Counted from the whole stretch's first letter, positions 243 to 62,758 are shown. The stretch: DNA of 62,758 nt, filler included, from Deltaproteobacteria bacterium (GCA_030698575.1; 10 parts of 10 records of this genome joined end to end with filler, not necessarily neighbours in it), one strand, 5' to 3'. Made by a program: numbers and translations. Notes: generated by a model from the sequence alone, not told the origin.

Positions 243-1820
243 TCAGGACGGAACGCCGGCGCGGCCGGCCCTGAGCGCGTCGATGGTCGCGGGAATTCGC
301 TCGATGAGATCCGTGGCAAGCAGCCCGACCCGCCCGTGCTCGGCCGCCGCCCTGTCGCCCGCCAGCCCGTGCAGGTAGACGCCGAGACAGGCGGCGTCGA
401 ACGGCGCGACGCCTTGCGCGAGGAAGCCGCCGATCATCCCCGACAGCGCATCGCCCATTCCGCCGGAGGCCATGCCGGGGTTGCCCGTCATGTTAACGCG
501 CAACTCACCTCCCGGGTCCGCCACGACTGTGCGCGCGCCCTTCAGCACCACGACAACACCCTGCGCCTGGGCCAGGCCCCTTGCCGCGCCGAATCGATCG
601 GCGTTGACCGCGCTGCTGTCTGTGCCGAGGAGCCGCCCCATTTCGCCCGGATGCGGCGTCAGCACGCGCGGCCCCGGCGCGGCCCCGATAGCGTCGGGGC
701 GCCCGGCCAGTGCATTCAGCGCATCGGCGTCGAGCAGCATGGGCAGCGCCACCTCGCGCGCCATCGCAAGAACGAACTCGCGCGTTTCCGGATGCAGAGA
801 GAGTCCGGGGCCCACCGCCAGTGCGGTCTTCCCCTCGGCAAGAGAGGCCAGCCGCTCGCCCGCCTTTCGCCCCAGCGTCCGCGCGTCGGTCTCCGGCACC
901 CCCTCGCACATCACCTCGGTGAGCTTGGCGGAGAGCACGGGAATGAGGCTTTCCGGCGCCGCGAGCGTAACCAGCCCGGTCCCGCACCGCATCGCTGCCT
1001 GCGCGGTCATGGCCGCCGCACCGGTCTTTCCCGGCGAGCCGGCCAGCACCAGCAGGTGCCCGAAGGTCCCCTTGTGGGCGTCCGGTGGACGGGGCGGAAG
1101 CGCTGCCAGCGCGTATGAAGGAGTGATGATCGCCTCGCGCAGGTTTGCGTCGGCGACGTAGGCCGCCGGGATGCCGATGTCCACCACGCGGAGTCTTCCC
1201 GCGAGCGCGGCCCCGGGAAAGAGCACGTGACCTCGCTTGGGCAGGCCGAAGGTCACCGTAAGGTCGGCCTCGACGGCACGACCGAGGACGGCCCCCGTCG
1301 TGGCGTCCACGCCCGTCGGGATGTCCACGGCCAGCACGCGGCGCCCCGGCCTGAGCGCGTTCATCAGATCGACCGCCGCACCGGCAAGCCCGGTCACCGG
1401 CCGCTCGAGCCCCGTCCCGAAAACGGCGTCGACAATCGCCGCGCACTGGGACAGCTCGCCTGCAATCCGCCGGAGGGCCGCCTCGTCGATGATATCGTTC
1501 ACGCGGACGCGCGCGCCGCGCGCCGCCTGCAGCATGCTGGCGGGATGCCCCGGGAGCGCGTCGGCCTTGCCGAGCAAAAGGGCGCGCGCCGGAGTTCCGG
1601 CGGCGACCAGGTGGCGCGCGACGACCAGTCCGTCACCGCCGTTGTTCCCCTTGCCGCAAAAGACCACGACCGCCTTGCCGGCCACCTCGGGGAACTCATC
1701 GAGAAACGCCCGGGCGGCTCCCTCGCCCGCCCGCTCCATGAGGATGTGCCCCGGGATCTCCGCCTCGCGGATGGTGCGCTCCTCGAGCGCGCGCATGTCA
1801 CTGGCGGTGGCGAGCTTCAT
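243..1820 (-). CDS. nnr: Bifunctional NAD(P)H-hydrate epimerase/dehydratase
   Basis: LMERAG, GKGNNGGDG, DAVFGTG, AVDIPTG, HKGTFG, DADAL, LTPHPGE, GGMGDALSG; start MKLATA at 1820 overlaps the acpS stop. Confidence 0.95.
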   Translation of the reverse strand: MKLATASDMRALEERTIREAEIPGHILMERAGEGAARAFLDEFPEVAGKAVVVFCGKGNNGGDGLVVARHLVAAGTPARALLLGKADALPGHPASMLQAARGARVRVNDIIDEAALRRIAGELSQCAAIVDAVFGTGLERPVTGLAGAAVDLMNALRPGRRVLAVDIPTGVDATTGAVLGRAVEADLTVTFGLPKRGHVLFPGAALAGRLRVVDIGIPAAYVADANLREAIITPSYALAALPPRPPDAHKGTFGHLLVLAGSPGKTGAAAMTAQAAMRCGTGLVTLAAPESLIPVLSAKLTEVMCEGVPETDARTLGRKAGERLASLAEGKTALAVGPGLSLHPETREFVLAMAREVALPMLLDADALNALAGRPDAIGAAPGPRVLTPHPGEMGRLLGTDSSAVNADRFGAARGLAQAQGVVVVLKGARTVVADPGGELRVNMTGNPGMASGGMGDALSGMIGGFLAQGVAPFDAACLGVYLHGLAGDRAAAEHGRVGLLATDLIERIPATIDALRAGRAGVPS

Positions 1821-2188
1821 TCCGGGGCTCCTTCGAAAACTACCGCGGCGGCGGCCATGCCGCCGTCGTGAGAAAGGGAGAGGAACGTGCTCGCCGCCGG
1901 GGGAGGCGTGATGTCGAGGCGGGGAGCACCGTCGCGCGAAGCACTCACGTTGAGGCTGCGAAGGGGGAAACCGGGAGATCCGAGCGCCCGGCGGGCCGCC
2001 AGTTTGGCGGCGAGCCGCGCGGCGAGATGCCTGGCGGGATCCCGGCGGCGGAAACAAGCCTCCCGCTCCTCCACCGTGAAAGCGCGCGCCAGGAAGCGCG
2101 CCTCGTGGAGGCGCAGCAGCCGCTCGACCCGGGCGATCTCGACAAGCACGACCGCGGCGCGAACTCCCGCGTCACCCAGCGTCCTCAC
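1817..2188 (-). CDS. acpS: Holo-ACP synthase (divergent)
   Basis: [28 protein letters not shown]; sits between pdxJ and nnr; the N-terminal GxD motif is degenerate. Confidence 0.75.
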
Positions 2189-2940
2189 CCTCCGGCGGCC
2201 CGCGCCGCCGTGATGAGCGCCTTCATCTCCGAGACGGCCCTTTCCAGGCCGACGAAGACCGCGCGAGAGACGAGGCTGTGGCCGATGTTGAACTCGACGA
2301 TCTCGGGGATGGCGGCCACCTCTCGCGCGTTCTGCAGGTTCAGGCCGTGCCCCGCGTGCACCTCGAGATCGAGCTTCGCAGCCGCCACCGCCCCCTGCCG
2401 GATGAGCGCCAGCTCGCGCCCCATGCCGGCGTCGTCGGGGGCGTCGCAGTAGCGGCCGGTGTGGATCTCGATGGAATTCGCGCCGGTCTCCCGCGCGCGC
2501 TCGATCTGTTCGGTGTCCGCATCGATGAAAATTCCCGTGTGGATGCCCGCCGCGACCAGCGCCGCCACGGCTTCCCGCACCGGCGCGAAGGCCGCGCGCA
2601 GATCCAGACCTCCCTCGGTGGTCACTTCCTCGCGACGCTCGGGAACAAGCGTCACGCTGTCGGGCCGGACCTCGAGAGCGAACCTCACCATTTCTGGAAC
2701 GGCCGCCAGCTCGAGGTTCAGGCGCGTCTGGACGATGCGGCGAAGGACCTGCACGTCGCGGTCCTGGATGTGACGCCGATCCTCGCGCAGATGAACCGTG
2801 ATGTTGTCGGCGCCGGCAAGTTCGGCGACAACGGCGGCCGCCACCGGATCGGGGTAGCGGATTCGGCGCGCCTGCCGGAGGGTGGCCACGTGATCAACGT
2901 TGACGCCGAGCCTCGCGGCGCCCGCCGTCTCGACTTTCAT
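2185..2940 (-). CDS. pdxJ: Pyridoxine 5'-phosphate synthase
   Basis: [45 protein letters not shown]. Confidence 0.97.
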
Positions 2941-4391
2941 CTGACTACCTTCCTTTTGAGCCCGTCGGTGGCGGGCTCACCCGTCCCCACGCCGGCCGTG
3001 ATGCAATCCACGAGGTCCTCGGCCATCCGGCGGATCATCGCCTCGTCCTCTCCCTCGATCATCACGCGCACCACGGGCTCTGTGCCCGAGTAGCGGACAA
3101 GCAGTCGCCCCGCGTCGCCCAGCTCTTGCTCGACCTGCCGCATCGCCTCGTCGATCCTGGGGATCCCGTGGAGATCCAGGCGCTCGCGGACACGCGCGTT
3201 CAGGAGGATCTGCGGCACCCGCGTGAGCACGCCGGCAAGTTCCGAGAGCGGGCGCTGCCGCTTCTGCATGATCGCGAGGAGCTGGAGCGCGCTTATCATC
3301 CCGTCGCCGGTCGTGTTGTGATCGAGGAAAATGAGGTGCCCCGATTGTTCGCCGCCGAAGTTGTAGCCGCCACGGACCATCTCCTCCACCACGTACCGAT
3401 CGCCCACCTGGCTGCGGATCATCTTGCCCCCCGCCTCGCGGATGGAACGCTCGAGCCCCAGATTGCTCATGACGGTGGCCACGACGGTGTTCTTGGCCAG
3501 GGCTCCCTCGCGCATCAGCTCCAGGCCGCAGATGGCCATGATCGCGTCACCGTCCACCAGCGCGCCCTTCTCGTCGACGAAGATCGCCCGATCGGCGTCC
3601 CCGTCCAGCGCAATGCCGAGATCGGCGCCGTGCTTCAGGACCGCGGCGGACACCACTTCGGGATGCAGCGAGCCGCAGTCGCGGTTGATGTTCTCGCCGT
3701 CGGGCTCGACGCCGAGGTGGATGACCTCGGCCCCCAGCTCTTCGAGCACCGCCGGTGCAACGCGAAACGCCGCGCCGTTGGCGCAATCGAGCGCGATGGT
3801 CATCCCGTCGAGGGTGAGAGTCTTCGGGAACGTGTTCTTCAGGAAGACGATGTAGCGCCCCCGCGAATCCTCGATCTTGTAGGCCTTGCCGAGCTGCGTC
3901 GCCGTCGGCCGGTGCCCGTCCAGCCCGTCACCGAAGATCAGCTCCTCCATCTGGATCTCCAGATCGTCCGGAAGCTTGAAGCCGTCGCGCGAGAAGAACT
4001 TGATCCCGTTGTCCTGGAACGGATTGTGCGACGCCGAGATGACGATCCCCGCATCGGCGCGCATGCTGCTCGTGAGAAAGGCGATGCCCGGCGTGGGCAT
4101 CGGCCCGACGAGGAGCGCATCGACGCCCATCGACACGATGCCCGACGAGAGCGCGTTTTCGATCATGTAGCCCGAGAGGCGGGTGTCCTTGCCGATGAGA
4201 ATCTGGTGGTGCCGGTGCCCGGGGCGGGCGCTCTGCCGGAACAGGTATGCTGCCGCCCGGCCGACCTGGATCGCCATCTCGCTCGTCATCGGGTGGACGT
4301 TGGCCACCCCGCGGATGCCGTCGGTGCCGAAGAGCCTCCGCTTGCCCGCCGGGGCCGCGTTTCCCTGCCGCCTGTTGCCTTTCGCCGCCAT
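2937..4391 (-). CDS. glmM: Phosphoglucosamine mutase
   Basis: [34 protein letters not shown]. Confidence 0.97.
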
Positions 4392-4405
4392 TCGAATGAA
4401 ATCTC

Positions 4406-5125
4406 CTATCTAGAGGCGCGCCTCGCGGTTTTATCCTTGTCCTGCTTCTCGCCTTCGTCGGCAGGGGCAGGCACGGCCTCGATGGTCACGCTCACCTTCA
4501 CCGTGACGTCCTCCGCCACCATGACCGTCTTCTTCCCTGTGTCGGCCAGCGGCACCTCGCGCTGAAGGCTCTCGGACCGCCCGCTCACATCCACCGGCCG
4601 TGTGGGCACTCCTTCCAGCGCCGCCACCTCGCTCCGCGCCCCCTCCACCATCACGGTAGAGGGCTGCTTTCGCACGCCGGTCACACGGAAGCCCGACGCC
4701 GGGTCGCCGCTCAGGACCGTCAGGATGGGCATCCGCTTTCGCTCCTTCCGCTCCACCTTGACGGAGACGATCGGAGGGGTGATGCGCACGACTTCCAGCT
4801 CACCCGGCAGGCCCAGGTGGTCCTTCGATATCTGGAGGATCTGCTCGCCCTCCCGCTCGTTCGAGAGCGGAATGCGCGCTACCACGTCTGCCGGCAGAAA
4901 ACGGCGAAGGAGAATCGGCGTTCCCGTGACAGCCACCTTCACGGTCAGCACGCTCTGGTCCATGATGAACGAGCCGGGCCCCGGCGCCACGCGCACCGGA
5001 ACCTCGAAGGTCTGATCGACGATCTGATCGCCCTGGAAAACGACTATCCAGAGAACTAACGCGAGGAAAAGCGAAAGGATCTTGAGGCCTGTGTTCTTGA
5101 CAACGAGTTCACGCAGCCATGCCAT
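4406..5125 (-). CDS. cdaR: YbbR/CdaR-like regulator of diadenylate cyclase
   Basis: N-terminal TM ([12 protein letters not shown]), two YbbR-like beta repeats, position between dacA and glmM. Confidence 0.85.
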
Positions 5126-5130
5126 TCGCT

Positions 5131-6006
5131 TCAGCTCCCCTCGCGATCGCCTGCGACCTGGGCCTCCGCAGCCTTGAGGCCGGCAGCACCGACCTCCTGC
5201 GGCGGATCTTCCTGCCCCTTCGCCTGATCCTTCAACTTGCGGCCAAGCGCATCCGTCAGCAGGCTCCGGAGGGCGTTCACGTCGGCGGCCACCTCGATCA
5301 CGCCGCCCTCCACGACGGACATGTTGCTGGTCTGCTCCGAGACCACGACAACGACCGCATCGGTCTCCTCGGTCAGCCCGATGGCCGCGCGGTGCCGCGT
5401 GCCCAGCTCGCGATCGACGTCAGGATTGCGCGTGAGCGGGAGCAGGCAACCCGCGGCCACAATGCGCCCGCGCTGCACCAGAACCGCACCGTCGTGGAGC
5501 GGCGAGCCGGGCATGAAGATCGACACGAGCAGATCGCGGACGACCTTGGCGTCCAGCGGCTGCCCGCCCTCCAGGTGATTCTCGAGGGCTGTTTCGCGCT
5601 CCAGCACGATGAGCGCGCCGATGCGCTTGTTCGCGCAGGACTGGGAGGCCCGGACCACTTCCTCGAGCACCTGCGTTTCCTCACCCCGCCCCAGCTGCGG
5701 GAAGAAAACGCCCCGACCCACCTTCGCGAGCGCCCGGCGGATATCGTGCTGGAATATGACGACGATCAAGATCGCAAAGGAGCCGAGGAAGTTGTCCAGC
5801 ACCCACTGGGTCGTGAACAGCTGGAAGTACTGCGAGATCACGAGCACCGCGACGATGAGAAACAGGCCCACGAGCATCTGGAAGGCCCGGGTACCACGAA
5901 TGAGCAAAAGCAGGGAGTAGATCCCCAGGGCGACGATGAGGATATCGACGGCGTCCTTCACCGAAAACGCCACGTAGATGTCGTTCAAGTAGGTCCACAC
6001 GCCCAT
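5131..6006 (-). CDS. dacA: Membrane-bound diadenylate cyclase CdaA/DacA
   Basis: Three TM helices, IGALIV, PLHDGA, GTRHRAA, VVSEQT. Confidence 0.95.
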   Translation of the reverse strand: MGVWTYLNDIYVAFSVKDAVDILIVALGIYSLLLLIRGTRAFQMLVGLFLIVAVLVISQYFQLFTTQWVLDNFLGSFAILIVVIFQHDIRRALAKVGRGVFFPQLGRGEETQVLEEVVRASQSCANKRIGALIVLERETALENHLEGGQPLDAKVVRDLLVSIFMPGSPLHDGAVLVQRGRIVAAGCLLPLTRNPDVDRELGTRHRAAIGLTEETDAVVVVVSEQTSNMSVVEGGVIEVAADVNALRSLLTDALGRKLKDQAKGQEDPPQEVGAAGLKAAEAQVAGDREGS

Positions 6007-52308: not shown

Positions 52309-52603
52309 TAGCACGAGTCCCGTTAAGGGCACCAGCGCAGCGTTACGCATCAACAGGTTAGCGTCTGGTTGGGGTAAAAGTGGTGTGATCCACGCCCCGC
52401 CCTGGTCCTAACGGCTGTTCAGAGACCCCCACCCCCTTCCTTGAGATTCGGGCCGGGTGATCGCGGCCACCCCCGGCAGGCCCGCTTTATGGAACCAGAT
52501 CCGCGCTGGAGGCCATCCATAGCTCCTATGTGTGGGTCCGCGGTTCAAATTTTTTTTTGGCATTTATCAACTTGCGAAACCGCACAGGTTCGAGGTTCAA
52601 GCG

Positions 52604-52999
52604 ATGGGCGATTTGGTGAAGATGGTCGCGGAGCATAAACGCCGTAGGACACAGATTAAAAAGCTAAAACGTCAATCGAGCCAAGCAGAAAAACAAGCGG
52701 AAAAATACACCTACTGGATCGCCGCCCGCCGAGACAAACGCCGGCTTAAAAACGGCTTTACCCCTGCTCTGTACGCTCTCGCGCTCGAGCGCCAAGAAGG
52801 CCGCTGCGCGATCTGCGCCGAGGACCTCGTGCCGATGCCGGCCAAGAAGGTCCACGCCGATCACGATCACCTCACCGGTTTGCCGCGGGGTGTGCTCTGC
52901 GACCAATGCAACCTCGGCCTTGGACGTTTCAAGGACGACCCCGAGACGCTGGAGGCCGCGGTGCGCTACCTCGCGTCGCCGCCTCTGGGCCTCGTCTAA
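52604..52999 (+). CDS. Endonuclease VII-type HNH nuclease
   Basis: Q.GRCAIC, HADHDH.TG..RGVLC..CN.GLG.FKD, A..YL. Confidence 0.9.
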   Translation: MGDLVKMVAEHKRRRTQIKKLKRQSSQAEKQAEKYTYWIAARRDKRRLKNGFTPALYALALERQEGRCAICAEDLVPMPAKKVHADHDHLTGLPRGVLCDQCNLGLGRFKDDPETLEAAVRYLASPPLGLV

Positions 53000-53031
53000 C
53001 AACCGTTTTACGGCGCGAAGTACCTCGAATT

Positions 53032-53270
53032 GCCCCTACGGGCTGGCGAGGGAATAAAGCACGGGCTACCCCTCGTCGGGCCTACTCGGTCCGCGCCCGC
53101 TGCCGCCAATTTTCTTACAGCCTCACCTACCACGTGTAGGGGGAGCACCGGAGGACCTTCGGCAGCGATGCCGCGGGACCTCTGTCACCGAGCAAGTCCT
53201 GATAGGTGGCTGTGATCAGGATCGAAGCCGAGCCCGCGTAGCCCCTCTTAGCTCGGCTGTGAAGAGGGGA
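53032..53270. ncRNA. Candidate structured (pseudoknotted) phage RNA
   Basis: Two crossing perfect 8-bp helices at 53226-53269 plus several hairpins and loop complements; no family recognised. Confidence 0.35.
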
Positions 53271-53597
53271 GAAGCCACCGCTTACACCCAACCACGGAGC
53301 CCCCGCTTGAGAACGCTCGACGAGTACAAGGCCAACCCGCCGACCGTGACGATTTCCTCCGGCGGCGAGCTCCCGCAATACTACCCCGGCCGCCACCCGA
53401 ATGTCGTCTACATCCCGCCCGCACCGCCGCCCCCGCCCGCACCCGCACCCCTGCCCCCGCCCCCGCCCCGCGGCCGCTGGGTCTGGATCTGGGATGAGTC
53501 GCCGTGGTACCCGCCGCCCGCACCGGGGTGGCCGCTGCCTTCTACGGTTTGGTGCGGCGCGCGCGGCGCGGGCGATGGGTCGCCGACTATCCAGTGA
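53259..53597 (+). CDS. Proline-rich hypothetical phage protein
   Basis: ORF whose stop overlaps the terminase GTG (GTGA); start uncertain. Confidence 0.45.
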   Translation: MKRGEATAYTQPRSPRLRTLDEYKANPPTVTISSGGELPQYYPGRHPNVVYIPPAPPPPPAPAPLPPPPPRGRWVWIWDESPWYPPPAPGWPLPSTVWCGARGAGDGSPTIQ

Positions 53598-56086
53598 TCT
53601 CGCTCGCGGAAGAGGCTGCCTCCCTCCAGAGGCAGCTTAACGCGATCGATCGCCAGCTCGCGCAGAACCTGCTGGCGCAGTACAAGCCCTACCCGAAGCA
53701 GCTCGAGTTCCATGCCGCGGGCGCGAACCCTGACGTCCGCGAGCGCCTGCTGATCGCCGGGAATCAGCTGGGCAAACGGCTCCGATTCGACGAACCGGTC
53801 CTCACCCCGACGGGCTGGGTACCGATCGGTGGGCTGCAGGTCGGTGACGAAGTCATTGCCGGCGACGGCTCGCCGACACGAGTCATTGGCGTCTTCCCGC
53901 AGGGCGTACACCCGCTGGTCGAGCTGGAGTTTTGCTACGGCCAGAAAATCATCGCCGACCCGGAGCACCTCTGGTGCGTCCAAACGCCTGCGACGCGCTT
54001 CCGCACGACGAGTAAGTCGCACCCGATGCGCAACGGCAAGCGGCCGTCAACCCCGGCGCCGAACCCCCGCCACGGCGAGTGGGAGGTCCTGACGACCGCG
54101 CAGATGCGCGCGAAATACGGCGATACGCCAACACCCGGAAACCGGTACGCAACCCCGGCGGTTGGCGTCTGCGAGTTCGCGAGCGGTCCCGTGCCGGTGG
54201 CGCCCTACGTGCTCGGCGTTCTGCTAGGTGACGGTGGGCTGACGCATGGTGTGACGATCACCAGCGCGGACGCATCGGTACTCGACGCCGTGCGGACCGA
54301 GGTCGAGCGCTTCGGCGGAGCACTCGTCCATCGCAGCCGGTACGACTACAACGCGATCCGGGCCGCGGCGCTGAAGGATCAGCTGCGCTTGCTCGATGTC
54401 CTCGGACACGGGTCCGCGACGAAGCGCGTACCGCACCGGTACCTGTGGAACAGCGCCGAGGTCAGGCTCGCTGTGCTGCAGGGGCTGATGGATACGGACG
54501 GCACCTGCGAGAAGTCCGGTAACACCAGCTTCACCTCGATATCGAAGGGCCTCGCCGAGGATGTCCTTTTCCTCGCGCGTTCCTTCGGCGGCAAGGCATA
54601 CATCAAAAGCCGGGTGCCGAAGTACACGCACCGCGGCGAGAAGAAAGTCGGCAAGCGCGCCTACACGGCCGTGATCCGCCTCCCGCACGTTCCAATCTTC
54701 AGGCTCGATCGAAAGCTCGCGCGCTACATCCGCCCGACCTCGACGACGGATCATAATCTCATCGTCGCCTTCCGTGACGTCGAGCCCGCCGAGGCGGTCT
54801 GCATATCGGTCGCACACCCGTCGCAGCTGTATGTGACGCGCGACTTCATTGTCACCCACAACACGCTCTCGGCTTCGCGCGAGGTGGCGATGCACGCCAC
54901 TGGCCTATACCCCTCGTGGTGGCCGGGCGCGATGTTCAGGAAGCCCACCGTCGGGTGGGCCGCCTCGATCACGAGCCAGGGGACGCGGGACAGCGTCCAG
55001 CGGATGCTGCTCGGGCTCCCCGGGAGTTGGGGGACCGGCGCCATCCCGAAGGCGATGCTCATCCCGGACGGGATCAAGAAGGCAGCCCACGGGGTTGCGG
55101 ACTCCGTCGAGACGATCACCGTCAAGCACATCCCCTTCTTCGACAACCCACACCGGCTGTCGGACGGGACGAGCAGGATCACCCTCAAGTCCTACGATCA
55201 GGGTCGCGAGCGGTGGCAGGGCGACACCCTGAACTGGATCTGGTTCGACGAAGAGCCGGAGAAGCAGGAGATTTACACCGAAGGGCTCACCCGCACGAAC
55301 GCTACCGGCGGGATTGCCTTCATGACGTTCACCCCGTTGCTCGGCATGAGCGACGTGGTCCGCCGCTTCCTGATCGATAAGGCAGCCGGCACGCACGTCA
55401 CGACGATGACGATCGAGGACGCGCTCCACTACACGCCGGAGCAGCGCAAGCGCATCGTCGCCGCCTACCCGAGTCACGAGCGCGACGCGCGCGCCAAAGG
55501 GATTCCGATCCTCGGCTCCGGCCGGATCTTCCCCTTCGAGGACGCGATGGTGGCGGAGCCGCCACTGCAGATCCCGAACTTCTGGCCCCGCGGCGCCGGC
55601 CTCGACTTCGGGTACGACCACCCGTTCGCGGTGGTCTGGGGCACGTGGGACCGGGACACGGACACGATTCACATCTACGACTGCTACAAGAAGCGCGAGT
55701 CCGCGCCGGCGGTGAATGCGGTAACGATCCGCTCCAAGGGCCTCTGGATACCGGTCTTCTGGCCGCATGACGGCGAGACCCGCGACAGCCGCGGCAGCGG
55801 CATCACCCACGCGCAGCAGTACCGCGACATGGGCGTGAATATGTTCAGGGAGCGCGCGACACACGCGCCCGCGAAGGGGCAGAAGGAGGGCGACGGCGGC
55901 ATCTCGCTAGAGAACGGCCTCACGCTGATGTTCGACCGCATACAGACCGGGCGGCTGAAGGTCGCGAAGCACCTGGTCGACTGGTTCGACGAGTTCCGCC
56001 TCTACCATCGGGAGGATGGCCTGGTCGTCCGTAAGAACGACGACCTGATGTCGGCGACGCTGAAGCTGCTGATGATGGTCCGCCAC
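53594..56086 (+). CDS. Terminase large subunit (P22 gp2-like) with intein, 3' truncated
   Basis: YPKQLEFH, AGNQLGK/T Walker A split by the intein, WFDEEP Walker B, TFTPL, GLDFG, WPHDG, DDLMSA. Confidence 0.93.
53777..54862 (+). mobile_element. Intein (362 aa, class-3 WCT type) with LAGLIDADG homing endonuclease
   Basis: GK|RLRFDEPVLTPTGW; block B EHLW; LGVLLGDG and LQGLMDTDG; block F VCISV; end VTHN|T. Confidence 0.93.
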
Positions 56087-56186
56087 NNNNNNNNNNNNNN
56101 NNNNNNNNNNNNNNNNNNNNNNNNNNNNNNTTAATTAATTAANNNNNNNNNNNNNNNNNNNNNNNNNNNNNNNNNNNNNNNNNNNN
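56087..56186. other. Artificial contig linker
   Basis: N run with TTAATTAATTAA. Confidence 0.99.
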
Positions 56187-56187
56187 C

Positions 56188-56505
56188 CAGCTCGAGCTTC
56201 TCCTTGACAAGGATCGCATTCTTGAACTCTACCTGAACGCCGTCGACTGGGGGCCCGGCGGGCGGGGCATCGGCCGGGCGGCGCGGGCCTACTACGGCAG
56301 GCGCCCGGCTGCGCTCGGCTGGGGCGAGTCGGCTTACCTGGCCGCTATGCTCCCCAATCCGCGCCGCTTCCATCCCGACGTGAGCCCCGCAGCGCTGCGC
56401 GAGCGGCAGCGCCGCCTCGTCATGCGGCTCCTGAGGGAGCGCAAACTGCCGCAGGGTGCCGCCTCCCAGGCGCTCCACGCGCCGGCGCCGCGCGCATCGA
56501 GATAG
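56188..56505 (+). CDS. GT51 peptidoglycan transglycosylase (MtgA-like), 3' end
   Basis: Hand translation LELLLDKDRILELYLNAVDWGPG..GI..AARAYYG...L...ESAYLAAMLPNP. Confidence 0.85.
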   Translation, partial: QLELLLDKDRILELYLNAVDWGPGGRGIGRAARAYYGRRPAALGWGESAYLAAMLPNPRRFHPDVSPAALRERQRRLVMRLLRERKLPQGAASQALHAPAPRASR

Positions 56506-57702
56506 GTGCAGCCCGTGAAACTTCCCCGGAATGTCAGGGTCTTCGGCGTCGCGAGCTTTCTGACCGACGTTCATAGTGAGATCGTCCTTCCGCTCCTGCC
56601 GCTCTTCGTGACACAGGCACTCGGCTTGCCGGCGACCTTCCTGGGTTTCATCGAGGGGGTGGCGGACAGCTCGGCGAGCCTCGTCAAGGTCGGCTCTGGC
56701 TGGCTCTCCGATCGCATGCGGCGGCGCAAGCCCCTCATCGTCGCCGGCTACACGCTCTCCACAATTGTGAAGCCGCTTCTCGCCGCCGCATTCACCGGCT
56801 GGCAGGTGATGGCGATTCGCTTCGGCGATCGCGTGGGGAAAGGAATTCGCAGCGCGCCGCGGGACGCAGCGCTGGCCGACGCGGTGCCGGAGGAGACGCG
56901 CGGGCACGCCTTCGGTTTCCACCGCGCGATGGACACCTTGGGCGCGGTCCTCGGCTCCGCGATCGCCTACGTGCTGATGCGGGAGACCGACGGCGCCTAC
57001 CGGAGCATTTTTCTCTGGGCCGCCCTGCCTGGCGTCCTCGCCGTCCTGACGCTCGCGATCTTCCTGCGCGAGAGCCCGCGCCCGCCTCACGCGCCGGTTT
57101 CCGCGGCCGCTGCGCCGGGCCGACCAAGCGCGCGCCTCGGCTGGTTCCTCGGCATTCACGGGCTCTTCTCGCTTGCGGATTTCAGCTACGCGATCTTCCT
57201 CCTTCGCGCCGAGAGCCTGGGCGTCGCCCCGGCTCTCATCCCCCTGGTCTATCTCGTCTACAACGTCTCCTACGCGGCCTTGCCGGTGCGCGCCGGGCGG
57301 CTGTCCGATCGCTGGGGGCGCGTTCCGGTGCTGATTGCCGGTTATGCCCTCTCGGCGCTCTGTTGCCTGGGCCTGGCACTTGCTTCGGCCGCGTGGATGG
57401 CCTGGGCGCTCCTGGCGCTCAACGGTGCCCGCATGGCGGTGACCTCGACCATCCCGCGCGCGCTCGCTGCCGATCTCTCGTCTTCCGCGCGACGGGGAAC
57501 CGATCTCGGGATCTACCATCTGGTGGTGGGACTGGCGGCGCTGCCGGCGAGCGTCGTGGCCGGCCTGTTGTGGGACGGGCTCGGACCGCGAGCGCCGTTC
57601 CTGTGGGCGGCGGCCGTGTCGCTCCTGGCGCTGGCGGCGATTATTTTATTGCGGGGAAGGATTTCGCCCGCGAAAGCCCGGAGGCGTCAGGAGATCCCGT
57701 AG
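56506..57702 (+). CDS. MFS transporter
   Basis: SFLTD..SE, GWLSDR..RRK, DRVGKGIRSAPRDA, GFHRAMDT, GRLSDRWGR. Confidence 0.92.
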   Translation: MQPVKLPRNVRVFGVASFLTDVHSEIVLPLLPLFVTQALGLPATFLGFIEGVADSSASLVKVGSGWLSDRMRRRKPLIVAGYTLSTIVKPLLAAAFTGWQVMAIRFGDRVGKGIRSAPRDAALADAVPEETRGHAFGFHRAMDTLGAVLGSAIAYVLMRETDGAYRSIFLWAALPGVLAVLTLAIFLRESPRPPHAPVSAAAAPGRPSARLGWFLGIHGLFSLADFSYAIFLLRAESLGVAPALIPLVYLVYNVSYAALPVRAGRLSDRWGRVPVLIAGYALSALCCLGLALASAAWMAWALLALNGARMAVTSTIPRALAADLSSSARRGTDLGIYHLVVGLAALPASVVAGLLWDGLGPRAPFLWAAAVSLLALAAIILLRGRISPAKARRRQEIP

Positions 57703-58685
57703 AGCGTGCGGTAGTCGCGTTCCTTCCGGAAGGCAGCGACCTCCGGGGGGAGCAGGTGTTCCTCTGTCGTCAACTCGCCCAGATCGCCGATCATGCACTT
57801 GACCGAGCCGCCCCCCTTCTTGAGGAATTCCCCCACGTCCACCGTGATCGGCTCCACCCCCGTCTCGCGCACCCGTGCGAGAAGCGCCTCGCTGACACCC
57901 ACGGGCATTAGCAGGCAGTGTTTCCCCCGGAAGCGGAGCGCGAAGCTGTTGGCGGCGTAGAGGGCGGCGTCATCATCGGATAGGGGGATGAGGTGGTCGC
58001 CGCAGTACTTTTCGAGAAGGTCGCGCGAGGCGGGCGAGAGGCCCGGCAGGTAGGCGAGCAAGTGCTTGCGTCCGGGACCAAAGCTCGCGAGCACGGTGTC
58101 GCCGTGGTAGTAGCGCTCGTCGACAAGTTCCAGGCGGAGCAGTTTCCGCGCGGGGACGAGCGCGGCGAGCTCCGCCTCGGCGCGTGGCTCGGATCGGAAG
58201 CCGTACACGCGGCGCCAGGGAGGGAGGCCGAAGCGAGGGACGAAGCGCTGCCGCTCGAGCGGGCCGCAGGTGAACAGGAATACGTCGCCTGCCGGGATGA
58301 AGTCGGCTTCCCCCTCGAAGCGGTAGCGCGACTGCACGGGTGCGAAGCCGAGGCGGCTCAGGAAGTCGCGATAGACCGGCGTCTCCCCGGCGCGCGTCTC
58401 GATGAGATTCGACAGGAGATAGAACCGGGCCGTTGGCGGCGTCTCCCCGGGATCGGGCAGGAACCCCGCGTTGGCCGGATAGACGAGGCCGGGGCACGCG
58501 TCGCTCGGGGGAATGACAAACACGCGCACGTCGAGCGATACCAGCGCGCCGGCCAGGGCATGCCACTGCGCGATGGCCTCTGCCCGCGAGACGCGCTTGC
58601 GCAAGCCGAGGCGGTTGCGGGTGTGCGGATTGGCGCCCCCGCGGACGCTGAAGTGCGCCGGGTCGCCCATGAGGACCGCCCTCAC
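57687..58685 (-). CDS. Pentein (amidinotransferase superfamily) enzyme, ArgZ-type guanidino dihydrolase-like
   Basis: LVYPANAG, R.GE, FEGEAD, YYHGDT, YAANS, EFLKKGGGSVKC. Confidence 0.8.
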   Translation of the reverse strand: MRAVLMGDPAHFSVRGGANPHTRNRLGLRKRVSRAEAIAQWHALAGALVSLDVRVFVIPPSDACPGLVYPANAGFLPDPGETPPTARFYLLSNLIETRAGETPVYRDFLSRLGFAPVQSRYRFEGEADFIPAGDVFLFTCGPLERQRFVPRFGLPPWRRVYGFRSEPRAEAELAALVPARKLLRLELVDERYYHGDTVLASFGPGRKHLLAYLPGLSPASRDLLEKYCGDHLIPLSDDDAALYAANSFALRFRGKHCLLMPVGVSEALLARVRETGVEPITVDVGEFLKKGGGSVKCMIGDLGELTTEEHLLPPEVAAFRKERDYRTLYGIS

Positions 58686-60175
58686 GGCGTTCTCCCAGGC
58701 CAGGGAACGCCTGGCGGTAGCGAGGCGGGGTCGAAGGGCGCCTCGGTCTCGAGGGAAGCCACCGGGTAGGTGCAGTACACGGGCGCCAGGAGGGCGCTCG
58801 GGAAGTCGTTGCCGCTCCGCCTCCGACCGCCGAATGGGAGAGTCGAGGGGGCGCCCGCTGTTCCGCGGTTCCAGTTCAGCACTCCCACCTCGCTGCGGAA
58901 GAACGCCTCCTCGTAGGCCGCCCGGCTGCGCGTGAAGATCGCGAGGGCGAGCCCATAGTCCGTCGCGTCCTGGGCGGACAGCGCCTCGTCGAGCCCGTCC
59001 ACGACGAGCACAGAGACATCGGGGCCGAAGATCTCTTCCTGCTGGTACCGGCTGGCACGATCAACACGCTCGATACGGTGGACGCCCGGCGATACGTAGT
59101 GGCCGCGGCGGGTCGTGTCGGGGCGGTGGGCCTCGAGCAGGGCCTCGGCGCCTTCCTTCTCCGCGCTCTCAACGAGATCGAAGAACCGGTGAAGCGCTCG
59201 TTCGGTGGCGAGGGGCCCCAAAAAGGTTTCCGGGTCGGCCCCGTGCCCGATGCGGGCCGCGCGGGCCAGGGAGAGGAAGCGGGCGAGGAAGGGATCCGCG
59301 ACGCGGCGATCGAGGATTAGGCGGCTGGTCGCCGTGCAGCGCTGGCCAGTGGTTTGAAAAGCCGCGAGGAAGCACTCGGCCGCCGCGCGATCGAGATCAG
59401 CGTCATGCAGCACAATGGCCGCGTTCTTCCCACCCATCTCGAGGGCAAGGATTTTACCGGGCTGATCCCGCGTCGCCTCGCGAACCCGCGTTCCCGTCTC
59501 CCAGCTCCCGGTGAACAGCACCCCCTTCACATCCGCATGCCGCGCCAGGCGGGCGCCGCTCTCCCCGTCGCCTTGCACGAGATTGAAGACGCCCGGGGGC
59601 AGGCCGGCGCCTTCCCAGCACTCGGCGACGATCTGTGATACGCCCGGCGCGATCTCGGAGGGCTTCAACACGACGCAGTTGCCCGTGGCGAGCGCCGGCA
59701 CTATGTGGCCGTTCGGAAGATGGAGGGGGAAGTTGTAAGGGCCGAGTACGGCGAGCACGCCACGAGACCGGAAGCGGCAACGGCCGCCGGCGACCTCGAA
59801 AGGAGCCACAAACCGAAGCGCCTCGTCGAGCGTGACGGCCACCTTGCCGACTGCGGCGGCGACTTCCTGCCGCGCCTCGTGAAGGGTCTTGCCCATCTCG
59901 CCCACGATGGCGAGGGCGGCTTCGTCGGCGCGCTTTTCGAGAAGCGTGGCGAAGCGGCGCAGGACGGTGTGACGCGCCTCCGGGCGGAGCTTCGCCCAGG
60001 CGGGCCAGGCGCGATGAGCGGCCTCGACGGCCTCATCCACCGCGGCGTGGCGAAAGGGGTAGCGGGCGGCCGGGGCGTCGAGATCGCCCGGGTCAGGGCA
60101 CCGGATCTCGCCGTCGGGAGTGCCGGGCGGGACGAACTGTCCCGCCAGATAATCACCCCGCCCCTGGATGGCCAT
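58682..60175 (-). CDS. astD: Succinylglutamate-semialdehyde dehydrogenase
   Basis: GPYNFPLHLPNGHIVPAL, FTGS, KILALEMGG, GQRCT, EEIFGP, GN..PSA.....YCTYPVASLE. Confidence 0.88.
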   Translation of the reverse strand: MAIQGRGDYLAGQFVPPGTPDGEIRCPDPGDLDAPAARYPFRHAAVDEAVEAAHRAWPAWAKLRPEARHTVLRRFATLLEKRADEAALAIVGEMGKTLHEARQEVAAAVGKVAVTLDEALRFVAPFEVAGGRCRFRSRGVLAVLGPYNFPLHLPNGHIVPALATGNCVVLKPSEIAPGVSQIVAECWEGAGLPPGVFNLVQGDGESGARLARHADVKGVLFTGSWETGTRVREATRDQPGKILALEMGGKNAAIVLHDADLDRAAAECFLAAFQTTGQRCTATSRLILDRRVADPFLARFLSLARAARIGHGADPETFLGPLATERALHRFFDLVESAEKEGAEALLEAHRPDTTRRGHYVSPGVHRIERVDRASRYQQEEIFGPDVSVLVVDGLDEALSAQDATDYGLALAIFTRSRAAYEEAFFRSEVGVLNWNRGTAGAPSTLPFGGRRRSGNDFPSALLAPVYCTYPVASLETEAPFDPASLPPGVPWPGRTP

Positions 60176-60190
60176 GAGAGACCTCGCCTG

Positions 60191-61216
60191 TCAGGGAATG
60201 GGCGTGACGGCCACCGGCGCGCCGGCGCGAGCGCCGATCGCTTCGCAGTGCTCGTCCGCCACGACGACCGCCTCGGCATCGAGAACGACCGGCGCCGCAA
60301 CGGCGCGGAAACCCGCCTTGCGCTCGTGGGAAATGATCGCACGACGAGCCTTCGCCGGGTCGGGCGCTTCGGGCCGGACGGAGCGGAGCACGGTATCTCG
60401 AAGGAGCGTCACGTCCTTCATCGGCGCGCCGAGGTAGGGACCGCCGTCGAAGGGATCGATCTGCTCGAGATACCGGAGCCCGATCTTCTCGAGCAGGTGA
60501 CGCGCGCCCCGGGCCCCGGGGGCCACTTCTCCCAGCAGGCGCTGCACCCGCTCGGGGAACATGGTCAGGTAGAGCGGCGACCGGGGGAAGAGCGAGAGGA
60601 TGAAGTTCTTGTCGGTGATGCTCAGACGGTCGGCCTCGCGGTAGTCCAGGCCAGTGAACTTGCGGCCATAAATTTCCCAGAAGAGGTTCCTCCCGGGTTC
60701 ATCGAGCGGCGAGAGAAGCTCGGCCAGCACCTCTTTCTGAAATCGTTCCGGGTGGCGCGCGATGAAGTTGAAGCGCACGTAGCTGAGCTGCATCCCGAGC
60801 TGTTCTGGCGCGCGGCGGTAGTCGGGATGGAGGATGAGGCCCCCGACCTCGGTGGGGCCATCTGTCGTGTAGCCGAGCTGCAGAACGCGGTGCTGGAAAT
60901 CCCGGAGCGGGACCTCGCTGTGACGTTCCTCGGTCTGGACCTCCATGAAGAAATGCGGAGACGTGACAGTGCCGTGCTTGGCGATGACGAGGCTCGTGCC
61001 GATCACGCGGCCGCGCTGCCGGTCCTCGAGAACGAAGACGTATTCCCCGCCGGCCAGCTGCTGTCGGAAACTGCGCTCGGAAGTGGCCAGGAGGCCGCGC
61101 AGGAGCGCCCGGTCCCGTGGCAGGTTCATCGTGTCGAGCAGCTCCGCAAGCGTCTCGATGGCATCGAGATCGCCCGGATGCCCCTCCCTGATGACGTAGC
61201 GCATCTCCTGCGTCAT
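60191..61216 (-). CDS. astA: Arginine N-succinyltransferase
   Basis: YVFVLED, E...LILHPDYR, LS..RF.FIA, VLAEL, FW...GRKF..LDY.EAD, IDPFDGGP. Confidence 0.92.
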   Translation of the reverse strand: MTQEMRYVIREGHPGDLDAIETLAELLDTMNLPRDRALLRGLLATSERSFRQQLAGGEYVFVLEDRQRGRVIGTSLVIAKHGTVTSPHFFMEVQTEERHSEVPLRDFQHRVLQLGYTTDGPTEVGGLILHPDYRRAPEQLGMQLSYVRFNFIARHPERFQKEVLAELLSPLDEPGRNLFWEIYGRKFTGLDYREADRLSITDKNFILSLFPRSPLYLTMFPERVQRLLGEVAPGARGARHLLEKIGLRYLEQIDPFDGGPYLGAPMKDVTLLRDTVLRSVRPEAPDPAKARRAIISHERKAGFRAVAAPVVLDAEAVVVADEHCEAIGARAGAPVAVTPIP

Positions 61217-61237
61217 GGTTTGCCGCCGAGCGTGGCT

Positions 61238-62647
61238 TCAGAGGCAGAGCCGCTCGATCATCCTCGTGTAGAAGGCGATGGCCTTCTCGCATTCGCTGAG
61301 AAGGTTGTGCTCGTTCGCGCGATGCACGTTCCCCACGGATTCGCCCGGCCCGAACACGATCGAGTCGATTCCCATCTGTGAATAGATCGCCGCCTCGGTG
61401 CAGGTTGCCTTCGTGTCCGCCTCGGCGGGAAGCCCGATTTCCGCGAGCACCTCCTGGGCCGTCCCCAGGAGCTGGCCATCGCGGGCGTCGCGCATGGGCG
61501 GGTTCGACCGGAGGTTGTGAATCTGGATGATGCCGTCGGGATGGGCGTTGGAAAGCTGATCCTCGAGTCGGGCGACGGCTTCCGCCACTTCGTCCATCGG
61601 AAGCCCCGGCACCGGGCGAACCTCGAAATTGAGGCGGACGATCCCCTCGACCGTTTCGATCCGGCCGACGTTCATGGTCGTCATCGGGGGATCGAACCCC
61701 TCCTCCTTGAATTCCGCCAGTCGTCCCTCGAGTTCCCGCAGCGCTTCCAGAACACCCTGGAGAACCGGCACCCCGCCCAGCGCCCGGCCCGCGCAGGGCC
61801 CCCGCTGTTCTATGCGGGCGCCCGCGGCAATGGCCTCGCTGGCGACGGTCTCGTCGCTGGCGAGCACGAGCGAGCAGCGGTTCGGAACGACGTTCGTGGC
61901 TGTTCCCCCGTGGATCCCGAAGACGCGGAGAGGATGGCCCCGCCGGAGAAGATCGGAGACGAGTTCGAGGGCCGTGAGAATGGCGTTCGCTCCGAGCGAG
62001 GGGGTGCTCGCATGCGCCGCCGTGCCGGGGAACACGACCTCGATCATCTCGATGCGCTCCTCGGGCGCGGGCGTGCCCGAGGCCGGGTCGATCCGGATCT
62101 CCCAGACGGCGAGCCCCTTGTGTGCGCGGATGGGACGCAGATGGGAGGGCTCGCCCACCAGTGCGTGGGCGAACTGGAAGTAGCCTCCTTCGACCAGCGC
62201 TTGCGCGCCCCGAAGCCCCACCTCCTCGCCATGGGTGCCCACGAGCGCCACCCGGTGCCGGAAGGGAACGCCGCGGAACTCCTCGAGCGCCTTCAGCTTG
62301 CAGAGAAAGTCGAGCTTGGCGTCGGCGCTGCCGAGGCCGTAGATTCGATCCCCGTCGACCGTTGCGCGGAACGGTTCGCCGCCGCAGGAAGTCCAGGCAG
62401 CCGGATCGCCCGGTGGAACCGTGTCAAGGTGGGTGTTCAGCAGAAGATCGTCGCGCGACTTGCTCCCCTTCTCGGCGATCAGGTTGACCTGCTGCACGCC
62501 GCGGAAAGCGGCCTCCTCGAGGCGCACCGTGAGGTCCGTTGGCGCGATGAGCCCGGCCAGATGCCGCGCGATTTCACCGGTCCCGTGCTCGCTGACCGAG
62601 ATGATGCCGATGATCCGGCGCGCCTCTTCCAGAAAATCGAATCCCAT
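61238..62647 (-). CDS. M20 metallo-amidohydrolase (ArgE/DapE-like)
   Basis: HLDTV, GLGSADAK, GEEVG, GEPS, AHAS.P..G.NAI, H.ANE; enlarged dimerisation region. Confidence 0.88.
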   Translation of the reverse strand: MGFDFLEEARRIIGIISVSEHGTGEIARHLAGLIAPTDLTVRLEEAAFRGVQQVNLIAEKGSKSRDDLLLNTHLDTVPPGDPAAWTSCGGEPFRATVDGDRIYGLGSADAKLDFLCKLKALEEFRGVPFRHRVALVGTHGEEVGLRGAQALVEGGYFQFAHALVGEPSHLRPIRAHKGLAVWEIRIDPASGTPAPEERIEMIEVVFPGTAAHASTPSLGANAILTALELVSDLLRRGHPLRVFGIHGGTATNVVPNRCSLVLASDETVASEAIAAGARIEQRGPCAGRALGGVPVLQGVLEALRELEGRLAEFKEEGFDPPMTTMNVGRIETVEGIVRLNFEVRPVPGLPMDEVAEAVARLEDQLSNAHPDGIIQIHNLRSNPPMRDARDGQLLGTAQEVLAEIGLPAEADTKATCTEAAIYSQMGIDSIVFGPGESVGNVHRANEHNLLSECEKAIAFYTRMIERLCL

Positions 62648-62758
62648 AGCCCTCTCCAGAAAGGGGCTCGCGGGCGAGAAGGGCCCCGGCTTGGCCTATC
62701 GTCGGGTTTGCCCGGATTCTTGACCGGAGGCGCCGTCGCGGGGGGCGTGATAAGTTGG

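Follow-up and report, generated by a model that had tools for sequence, protein, structure and literature searches.

The window analysed here, a stretch of 62,758 nucleotides from a Deltaproteobacteria bacterium (GCA_030698575.1), carries near its end four closely packed genes on the minus strand, which encode an M20 amidohydrolase, AstA, an AstD-like dehydrogenase and a pentein of 332 amino acids (Table 1). The initial annotation interpreted this cluster as a re-wired arginine succinyltransferase (AST) pathway, in which the pentein stands in for AstB and the M20 enzyme for AstE. The observation itself is confirmed: the four open reading frames lie in the order described, separated by 21 nucleotides (61217-61237), by 15 nucleotides (60176-60190) and then by a 4-nucleotide overlap (58682-58685), and the pentein motifs it had listed (PANAG, FEGEAD, YHGDT and EFLKKGGGSVKC) are all found in the translation. 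The window consists of ten contigs joined by nine N44-TTAATTAATTAA-N44 spacers (sites within 14732-56186), so that adjacency across these sites is not physical. The cluster and a convergent transporter gene both lie on the last piece (56187-62758), with 111 nucleotides visible upstream of the M20 gene. Candidates for four of the five AST activities are encoded in the window, and no aminotransferase gene is seen on the visible piece. The arrangement is not due to chance, because it recurs in many unrelated metagenome-assembled genomes (MAGs).

Table 1. Genes and features on the last contig piece of the window (aa, amino acids; MFS, major facilitator superfamily)
Feature	Position	Strand	Assignment or remark
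M20 (ArgE/DapE-type) metallo-amidohydrolase, 469 aa	61238..62647	-	Proposed N-succinylglutamate desuccinylase (AstE step)
Shine-Dalgarno-like sequence GGAGAGGG	62650..62657	-	Directly upstream of the M20 ATG; read by eye
AstA-family arginine N-succinyltransferase, 341 aa, divergent subtype	60191..61216	-	PF04958
AstD-like aldehyde dehydrogenase, 497 aa	58682..60175	-	Proposed N-succinylglutamate 5-semialdehyde dehydrogenase; PF00171
ArgZ-like pentein, 332 aa	57687..58685	-	Proposed non-orthologous N2-succinylarginine dihydrolase (AstB step)
MFS transporter	56506-57702	+	PF07690, 149.8 bits

The main finding concerns the pentein, which very probably takes the guanidino-removal step of the pathway in place of AstB. 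As the initial annotation had pointed out, it is much shorter than the AstB proteins compared (332 against about 440-460 amino acids), and it resembles the N-terminal domain of ArgZ/AgrE rather than AstB. The AstB profile PF04996 found no match in it at E <=0.01, no AstB chain was among the solved structures retrieved by a profile search at E <=0.001, and a profile-profile comparison (hhalign) with five AstB sequences was non-significant (E 0.087, probability 0.66). The closest solved sequences in the profile search are the arginine dihydrolase domains of ArgZ/AgrE (E ~1e-24). An AlphaFold2 model of the pentein (predicted local distance difference test score, pLDDT, 84.5; predicted template modelling score, pTM, 0.86) has the alpha/beta propeller fold and the C-terminal, presumably nucleophilic, Cys of the pentein superfamily. 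When this model was used as a Foldseek query, all 121 matches shown at E <=0.001 were members of that superfamily. The best of them were ArgZ/AgrE (E 3e-20, template modelling (TM) score 0.87 on the target, 24-26% identity), with AstB at rank 14 (E 8e-12, TM 0.49-0.62), a likeness at the level of the fold that it shares with the dimethylarginine dimethylaminohydrolases (DDAHs) listed beside it.

Family models place the protein in none of the named groups. Pfam gave a weak match to PF19420 (32.6 bits, residues 229-300 only), and the Arg_dihydro model NF052232 scored 83.3 bits against a cut-off of 450. The two DDAH models NF045659 and NF045658 scored 128.6 against 300 and 17 against 450 bits, the former, for the Mycobacterium tuberculosis-type DDAH, being the highest NCBIfam score obtained. 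Judged by its sequence, the pentein thus falls outside AstB, ArgZ and DDAH, yet it appears to have their fold and their catalytic residues. The family to which it belongs is large and tightly conserved, with more than 2000 matches among 8000 candidates scored and 72 representatives of 50%-identity clusters at E <=1e-30. Its members are called 'dimethylarginine dimethylaminohydrolase family protein' or 'arginine deiminase-related protein' in the databases, and no cultured organism was found among the 10 protein clusters that were looked up.

A scan of species-representative genomes yielded 242 loci with a relative of the pentein, of which the best 80 were analysed, neighbours being called by tblastn with the window proteins and by Pfam scans. 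Labels of these 80 loci include Myxococcota, Binatia/Binataceae, Methylomirabilota, Nitrospinae, Actinomycetes and Verrucomicrobiia. Four types of arrangement can be distinguished. In type A the order is that of the window, namely M20, astA, astD, pentein (also at L002, L025, L038, L051, L057 and L079). In type B, found in 19 of the 80 loci, a class-III aminotransferase gene (AstC-like) precedes astA, astD and the pentein. Type C has two forms, one in which PrkA, DUF444, SpoVR, AstC-like, astA and pentein genes follow one another, and one in which the pentein and astA face convergent M20 and AstC-like genes (L067, L069). In type D (32 of the 80 loci) the pentein stands apart from any AST gene. 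Canonical clusters of the same lineages (L100, L101, L102) have the order AstC-like, astA, astD, astB, and comparison with these shows that type B is the canonical operon in which the pentein has taken the slot of astB.

Within the examined flanks of 8 kb, astA was present in 45 of the 80 loci, and an astD-like gene lay directly upstream of the pentein, at a distance of at most 300 nucleotides, in 31; both counts are lower bounds, several loci being cut by contig ends. The linkage of the pentein to astA, whose absence would have spoken against the initial interpretation, is therefore conserved. In type C the PrkA, DUF444 and SpoVR genes stand directly upstream of the AstC-like, astA and pentein genes and on the same strand (L003, positions 578-5269; L006, L007, L027, L030, L056). 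The Escherichia coli homologues of this triad (yeaG, yeaH, ycgB) respond to nitrogen starvation, as the ast operon does. At L023 and similar Binataceae loci an unlinked pentein sits in a conserved block of six other gene types (ABM monooxygenase-like, acyl-CoA dehydrogenase, SDR, sugar epimerase/dehydratase, DegT-type aminotransferase and phosphopantetheinyl transferase), which has no evident functional tie to arginine.

Two proteins, P0121 (874 amino acids) and P0122 (699 amino acids), contain an AstD-like part and a pentein part in a single chain. Each is known from a single record, and they may be true fusions or products of a frameshift or of gene calling. The 'astD' open reading frames of 600-685 amino acids, considered as further fusions, were rejected as N-terminal over-extensions into astA, and the large open-frame lengths seen in one of the genome samples described below (141 genomes) were likewise dismissed as real gene lengths, since they reflect open frames in DNA rich in guanine and cytosine.

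The distribution of the pentein follows that of AstA and is complementary to that of AstB. AstA is rare in a phylum-level sample (8 of 301 genomes), and five genomes with a high-scoring, canonical AstA all had AstB and all lacked the pentein. Five type-A and five type-B genomes were searched for AstB (PF04996), and it was detected in none of them. Five of five type-D genomes have AstA elsewhere, with an M20 orthologue or an AstC-like gene beside astA in three of them. Two classes were sampled further, with 201 genomes (around genome G311) and 141 genomes (around G008). Among the 201, the pentein and AstA were each found in 16 and AstB in one, the pentein and AstA occurring together without AstB in 15, so that 15 of the 16 AstA-positive genomes are without AstB. 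The pentein and astA lie on different contigs or 387 kb apart in nine of these 15. The sole genome with AstA and no pentein, G316 (AstA 417 bits), is also the sole one with AstB. The only pentein-positive genome in which AstA was not found (G439) has three in-frame stops in its pentein gene (two TAG and one TAA; C38:45273-46226), which looks like a decaying copy after the loss of its partner.

The second class gave the same picture. Of its 141 genomes 86 have AstA, 84 of them without AstB; 76 have the pentein, all of them AstA-positive, and the pentein was present in none of the 55 AstA-negative genomes. The only two with AstB (G588, G589) have AstA scores of the canonical type and no pentein. 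Across both samples, 91 of 92 pentein carriers are AstA-positive, AstB occurs in none of these 91, and the three AstB carriers are AstA-positive and pentein-negative. Fisher tests of the association gave p values of 1.6e-20 (201 genomes) and 2.9e-29 (141 genomes), which ignore shared ancestry and hence overstate independence. The pattern holds in two classes, and for linked and unlinked arrangements alike. It was expected from the initial annotation that genomes with this operon would be without astB and astE, and indeed AstB was found in 0 of 10 operon genomes and 0 of the 91, and AstE above cut-off in none of 10 operon genomes and none of the 201.

The residues of the pentein speak to both its chemistry and its substrate. 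C297, H194, E124 and N72 align with ArgZ Cys264, His168, Glu118 and Asn71 (alignment to 6jv0 and 6lrf) and are kept in 121 of 121 family members. The residues N19, G66, N72, R98, E124, H194, D196, C297, Q146, R147 and R159 are invariant in the aligned family (120-121 of 121), as is R23, which belongs to an NPHTR motif that stands where ArgZ-like proteins have NPWM. Position 72 is Asn, not the Asp that clamps the guanidine in DDAH (human DDAH1 Asp79). The position of ArgZ Asn71, a residue whose N71S mutant is trapped on an intermediate in structure entry 6juz, is occupied by Asn here too, which favours a dihydrolase over a deiminase. In a weak alignment, AstB shows an A-N-A motif at the equivalent place, and its GGG-x-x-C motif aligns with the catalytic Cys.

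Part of what distinguishes the family from its ArgZ-like relatives lies at the position that would meet the alpha-amino group. According to a review of DDAH1 (PMC10958460), Asp73 of the human enzyme holds the alpha-amino group of the substrate, and Asp79 and Asp269 hold the guanidine. ArgZ/AgrE have the motif W-P-D-(M/L)-V-F-T-A-N, in which the final Asn stands for the clamp Asp of DDAH and an Asp is placed six residues ahead of it, and the same preceding Asp is found in nine of ten stand-alone ArgZ-like or M. tuberculosis DDAH-like outgroup proteins. In the pentein family the motif is P-G-L-V-Y-P-A-N, and Gly66 is at that position in all 121 members; in AstB, whose alignment here is weak, the column has Ser. 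The family also has an Arg-rich insertion of about 24 residues between FEGEAD and YGFRS, with Q146, R147, F148, P155, P156 and R159 invariant, which is absent from all ten outgroup proteins, and an additional Gly in front of the catalytic Cys. For an N-succinylated substrate one would expect just such changes, in which the acidic residue that pairs with a free alpha-ammonium group is lost and new invariant arginines appear. The change from Asp to Gly66 and the insertion thus appear to fit N2-succinylarginine better than free arginine, and we regard N2-succinylarginine as the likely substrate of the pentein.

AstA and AstD of the window are divergent homologues of the canonical enzymes. AstA matches PF04958 over its full length (profile positions 2-336 of 337) with 296.2 bits, the cut-off being 29.4, and does not reach the equivalog thresholds of NCBIfam (TIGR03244, 181.6 against 391). 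The same subtype is seen across the relatives, AstA scoring 256-316 bits in pentein genomes and 369-439 bits in AstB genomes. AstD matches PF00171 with 384.4 bits, and its two best NCBIfam models are both succinylglutamate-semialdehyde dehydrogenases (418.8 and 411.6 bits, the latter TIGR03240); these scores stay below the cut-offs (514 and 579.3) but exceed that of the next family by over 120 bits. As for the aminotransferase, an AST-linked, AstC-like class-III subfamily occurs in 8 of 16 AstA genomes and in none of the 185 others of the 201-genome sample, with 655-751 bits for the orthologues in pentein genomes and 458 bits in the canonical genome G316. No such orthologue was found in the type-A genomes, in which the best AstC-like match scores 130 bits. 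These genomes carry only generic class-III aminotransferases, which fits the earlier suggestion that the AstC step comes from elsewhere, for example from ArgD.

The M20 protein has the family domains PF01546 (100.6 bits) and PF07687 (M20_dimer, 52.7 bits), and Pfam and NCBIfam scans found no match in it to the AstE family (TIGR03242, PF04952). Its best NCBIfam model is that of ArgE (TIGR01892, 188.8 bits against a cut-off of 297.7), all equivalog cut-offs lying above its scores. The nearest solved chains are ArgE 7rsf (3.5e-42) and DapE 7uoi, and the acetylcitrulline deacetylase 2f7v was matched as well. Eleven orthologues share H73, D75, D109, E141, E142, E166, H212 and H442, presumably the metal ligands and general base, as in DapE and ArgE. 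This subfamily is sharply bounded, with ten matches at E <=1e-158 in the 201-genome sample and nothing between 1e-158 and 1e-40, and these matches fall in 10 of the 15 genomes having both AstA and the pentein and in none of the 186 others. By coordinates it lies less than 200 nucleotides from astA in seven of the ten genomes and less than 2 kb away in eight, and three distinct architectures have it next to astA. Five of the 15 genomes carry both the M20 gene and the AstC-like gene, which are neighbours in G400, G440 and at L069; the two are therefore not alternatives and fill different steps.

AstE (TIGR03242) scored above its cut-off in none of the 10 operon genomes and none of the 201 class-sample genomes (211 genomes in all). 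This model was used to repeat the AstE search because PF04952, now a hybrid domain of 76 positions, matched one control genome only. In another control genome, that of Caulobacter vibrioides, AstA and AstB were matched by their models and AstE by neither of the two; the absence of a recognisable AstE may be a common feature of AST pathways beyond the lineages studied. Since the product of AstD needs a desuccinylase, the most economical role for the M20 enzyme is that of an AstE analogue, and we lean towards succinylglutamate desuccinylase as its function. This assignment is less secure than that of the pentein.

Put together, these observations suggest that the four genes encode the core enzymes of a variant AST catabolic pathway in which the AstB and AstE steps have been displaced, a statement that, taken as a whole, we favour with some reserve. 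According to this model, whose catabolic direction we infer, together with the compounds on which the pentein and the M20 enzyme act, AstA would succinylate L-arginine. The pentein would then convert N2-succinylarginine into N2-succinylornithine, 2 NH3 and CO2, carrying out the AstB reaction from a different pentein lineage. A class-III aminotransferase encoded outside the operon, here presumably a generic ArgD-type enzyme and in some relatives the product of the AstC-like gene, would form N-succinylglutamate semialdehyde, which the AstD-like dehydrogenase would oxidise to N-succinylglutamate. Finally, the M20 hydrolase would split N-succinylglutamate into glutamate and succinate, the AstE reaction. 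Each of the computational checks that were run supported this interpretation of the initial annotation. One may speculate further that the pentein is a second, convergently recruited N2-succinylarginine dihydrolase, an ArgZ-like enzyme retooled by loss of the Asp (Gly66) and gain of the Arg-rich insertion, which with its dedicated M20 enzyme would constitute an 'AST-II', the prevailing form of the pathway in whole uncultured lineages. Towards this broader proposal we are inclined only slightly.

Three alternatives to this model were considered. The closest characterised relatives of the pentein, ArgZ and AgrE, act on free arginine (as the titles of their structure entries state), and the lower-scoring AstA subtype of the pentein genomes could mean a changed acceptor; the Pseudomonas enzyme AruF/G accepts ornithine. 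The pentein could accordingly be a free L-arginine dihydrolase like ArgZ, with the divergent AstA succinylating ornithine, so that the AstB step would be bypassed and not replaced, while the later steps would stay as in the model. Co-occurrence with AstA and exclusion of AstB would be predicted equally in that case. However, the presumed alpha-amino-binding Asp of ArgZ, AgrE and nine of ten outgroup proteins is replaced by Gly in every family member, the Arg-rich insertion is specific to the family, and the Arg_dihydro model reaches only 83 bits of the 450 required. Free ornithine, moreover, should need no succinylation for its catabolism, and we consider this explanation unlikely. Even less probable, in our view by a wide measure, is that the pentein is a DDAH or plain deiminase, as its relatives are labelled and as the top NCBIfam score (M. 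tuberculosis-type DDAH) might suggest, and that its place beside astA has no pathway meaning. That score is under half of the cut-off, the guanidine-clamp Asp of DDAH (Asp79 in human DDAH1) is Asn72 here, as in dihydrolases, and neither the near-perfect co-occurrence with AstA, even when unlinked, nor the pseudogene in an AstA-less genome would be expected.

A different alternative concerns the M20 enzyme, whose best family and structure matches are acetylornithine deacetylases (TIGR01892 and 7rsf, with 2f7v also matched). It might be an ArgE-like desuccinylase of N2-succinylornithine (or of N-succinylcitrulline), the cluster then turning arginine into ornithine or citrulline via succinylated intermediates, or salvaging them. 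In window-type operons the M20 gene occupies the astC position of other operons, the AstC-like subfamily being absent there, and at L017, L067 and L069 the M20, astA and pentein genes are found with no astD nearby. Yet the AstD-like dehydrogenase kept in the window-type operon would then be left with no substrate, and the co-occurrence of M20 with AstC-like genes in 5 of 15 genomes, at times adjacently, fits separate steps. The score far under the ArgE cut-off also argues against this explanation, which we hold to be quite unlikely.

Several points weigh against the displacement model itself. All 80 related loci come from MAGs, whose incompleteness limits every absence reported here, and some of the searches scored the top 8-15 candidates per genome. 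The 32 type-D loci have no AST gene in the examined flanks, and eight AstA-positive genomes of the 141 show neither the pentein nor AstB; in six of these eight, a contig begins no more than about 2.7 kb from astA, and fragmentation is the likely cause. The phyletic pattern fits a free-arginine dihydrolase with an ornithine-accepting AstA equally well. As to the substrate pocket, the equivalence of the Asp rests on motif spacing and alignment, with a role transferred from human DDAH1, and the insertion is modelled at pLDDT 57-63, its place in the pocket and those of R23, R147 and R159 being presumed.

The remaining points against the model concern the M20 enzyme, whose orthologue is absent from five of five type-B genomes and from 5 of the 15 genomes with AstA and the pentein; the enzyme is therefore no fixed component of the pathway. 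The canonical AstB genome G316 has no AstE either, nor this M20 enzyme, so that the absence of AstE does not discriminate between the two forms, and the case for a displaced AstE stands on co-occurrence and not on complementarity. The M20 gene is missing from many operons of type B. Different genomes evidently rely on different enzymes for the last step.

Comparison with characterised systems helps to place the cluster. With AstB (PF04996; E. coli 1ynf, 1ynh and 1yni) the pentein shares the operon slot after astA and astD, the proposed reaction, the pentein fold and a complementary distribution among AstA genomes. It differs from AstB in its shorter length, in lacking significant sequence similarity and in the low TM scores, and is a separate lineage of the superfamily. 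ArgZ/AgrE (6juy, 6jv0, 6jv1, 6lrf-6lrh; NF052232) are closest in structure and sequence and have the same Cys, His, Glu and Asn71-equivalent residues, but the pentein has no fused ornithine cyclodeaminase domain. It also differs from them in the Gly for the Asp before V-F-T-A-N, the insertion, NPHTR for NPWM and the extra Gly before the Cys, and its genomic partner is AstA and not the ornithine-ammonia cycle. The M20 enzyme resembles AstE (TIGR03242) in its proposed reaction and its membership of an AST gene set, while its fold and family (PF01546/PF07687) are unrelated to the M14-like fold of AstE. With ArgE and DapE, the latter of which cleaves an N-succinyl amino acid, it shares the family, the two-domain architecture and the conserved His, Asp and Glu residues, although it exceeds the solved ArgE chain in length by about 85 residues (469 against 386 amino acids) and its subfamily is confined to genomes with AstA and the pentein. 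The canonical AST operon of E. coli has the order astCADBE. The AstA and AstD homologues are shared with it, and relatives of the cluster keep the order astC-astA-astD-X, but X is the ArgZ-like pentein, astE is missing, and the first gene of the cluster in the window is that of the M20 enzyme instead of astC.

The MFS gene that converges on the cluster overlaps the 3' end of the pentein gene with its own 3' end by 16 nucleotides, and is also present at the closest locus, L002 (65% identity). It could be a carrier of a substrate or product of the pathway, or its presence could be mere synteny. A promoter and terminator scan was uninformative, returning no promoters and one terminator-like site, within the MFS gene. 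Contigs of one groundwater DNA run, which contains 94% of the sampled words, span the pentein/astD, astD/astA and astA/M20 junctions; this run is probably the source of the DNA itself and so gives no independent support. One RNA run gave short pieces only, some mismatched and mostly aligned in part, and provides no evidence of expression; nor do the sequencing runs with small shares of the sampled words provide evidence of habitat. The phage-like genes before position 56130 belong to other contig pieces and have no physical linkage to the AST cluster. Within the preceding pieces (52532-56134), by-eye reading of the translations revealed an open reading frame of 155 amino acids with an HNH-like Cys/His pattern, and one of 876 amino acids, entering a spacer, that resembles a large terminase split by an intein-like segment.

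A literature search, outside which supplements and most subscription journals lay, found no description of an ArgZ-like or DDAH-like enzyme in AST operons. That the cluster represents a non-orthologous displacement within the known AST pathway, and not a new kind of system, is well supported, and the variant is widespread in uncultured soil and groundwater bacteria. With its penteins labelled as DDAH or 'arginine deiminase-related', the AST pathway is scored as incomplete in these genomes and the function goes unrecognised, which makes the variant relevant to genome annotators as well as to enzymologists. If the model is correct, arginine catabolism via succinylated intermediates would be encoded in most genomes sampled from one class (86 of 141), as well as in further lineages known from MAGs only. 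AstB and the ArgZ-like pentein would form a natural pair of sequence-unrelated penteins carrying out the same two-step guanidino hydrolysis, with the change of Asp to Gly and the insertion offering a hypothesis for their specificity. The M20 enzyme, in turn, would join DapE and AstE as a third kind of desuccinylase acting on N-succinyl amino acids.

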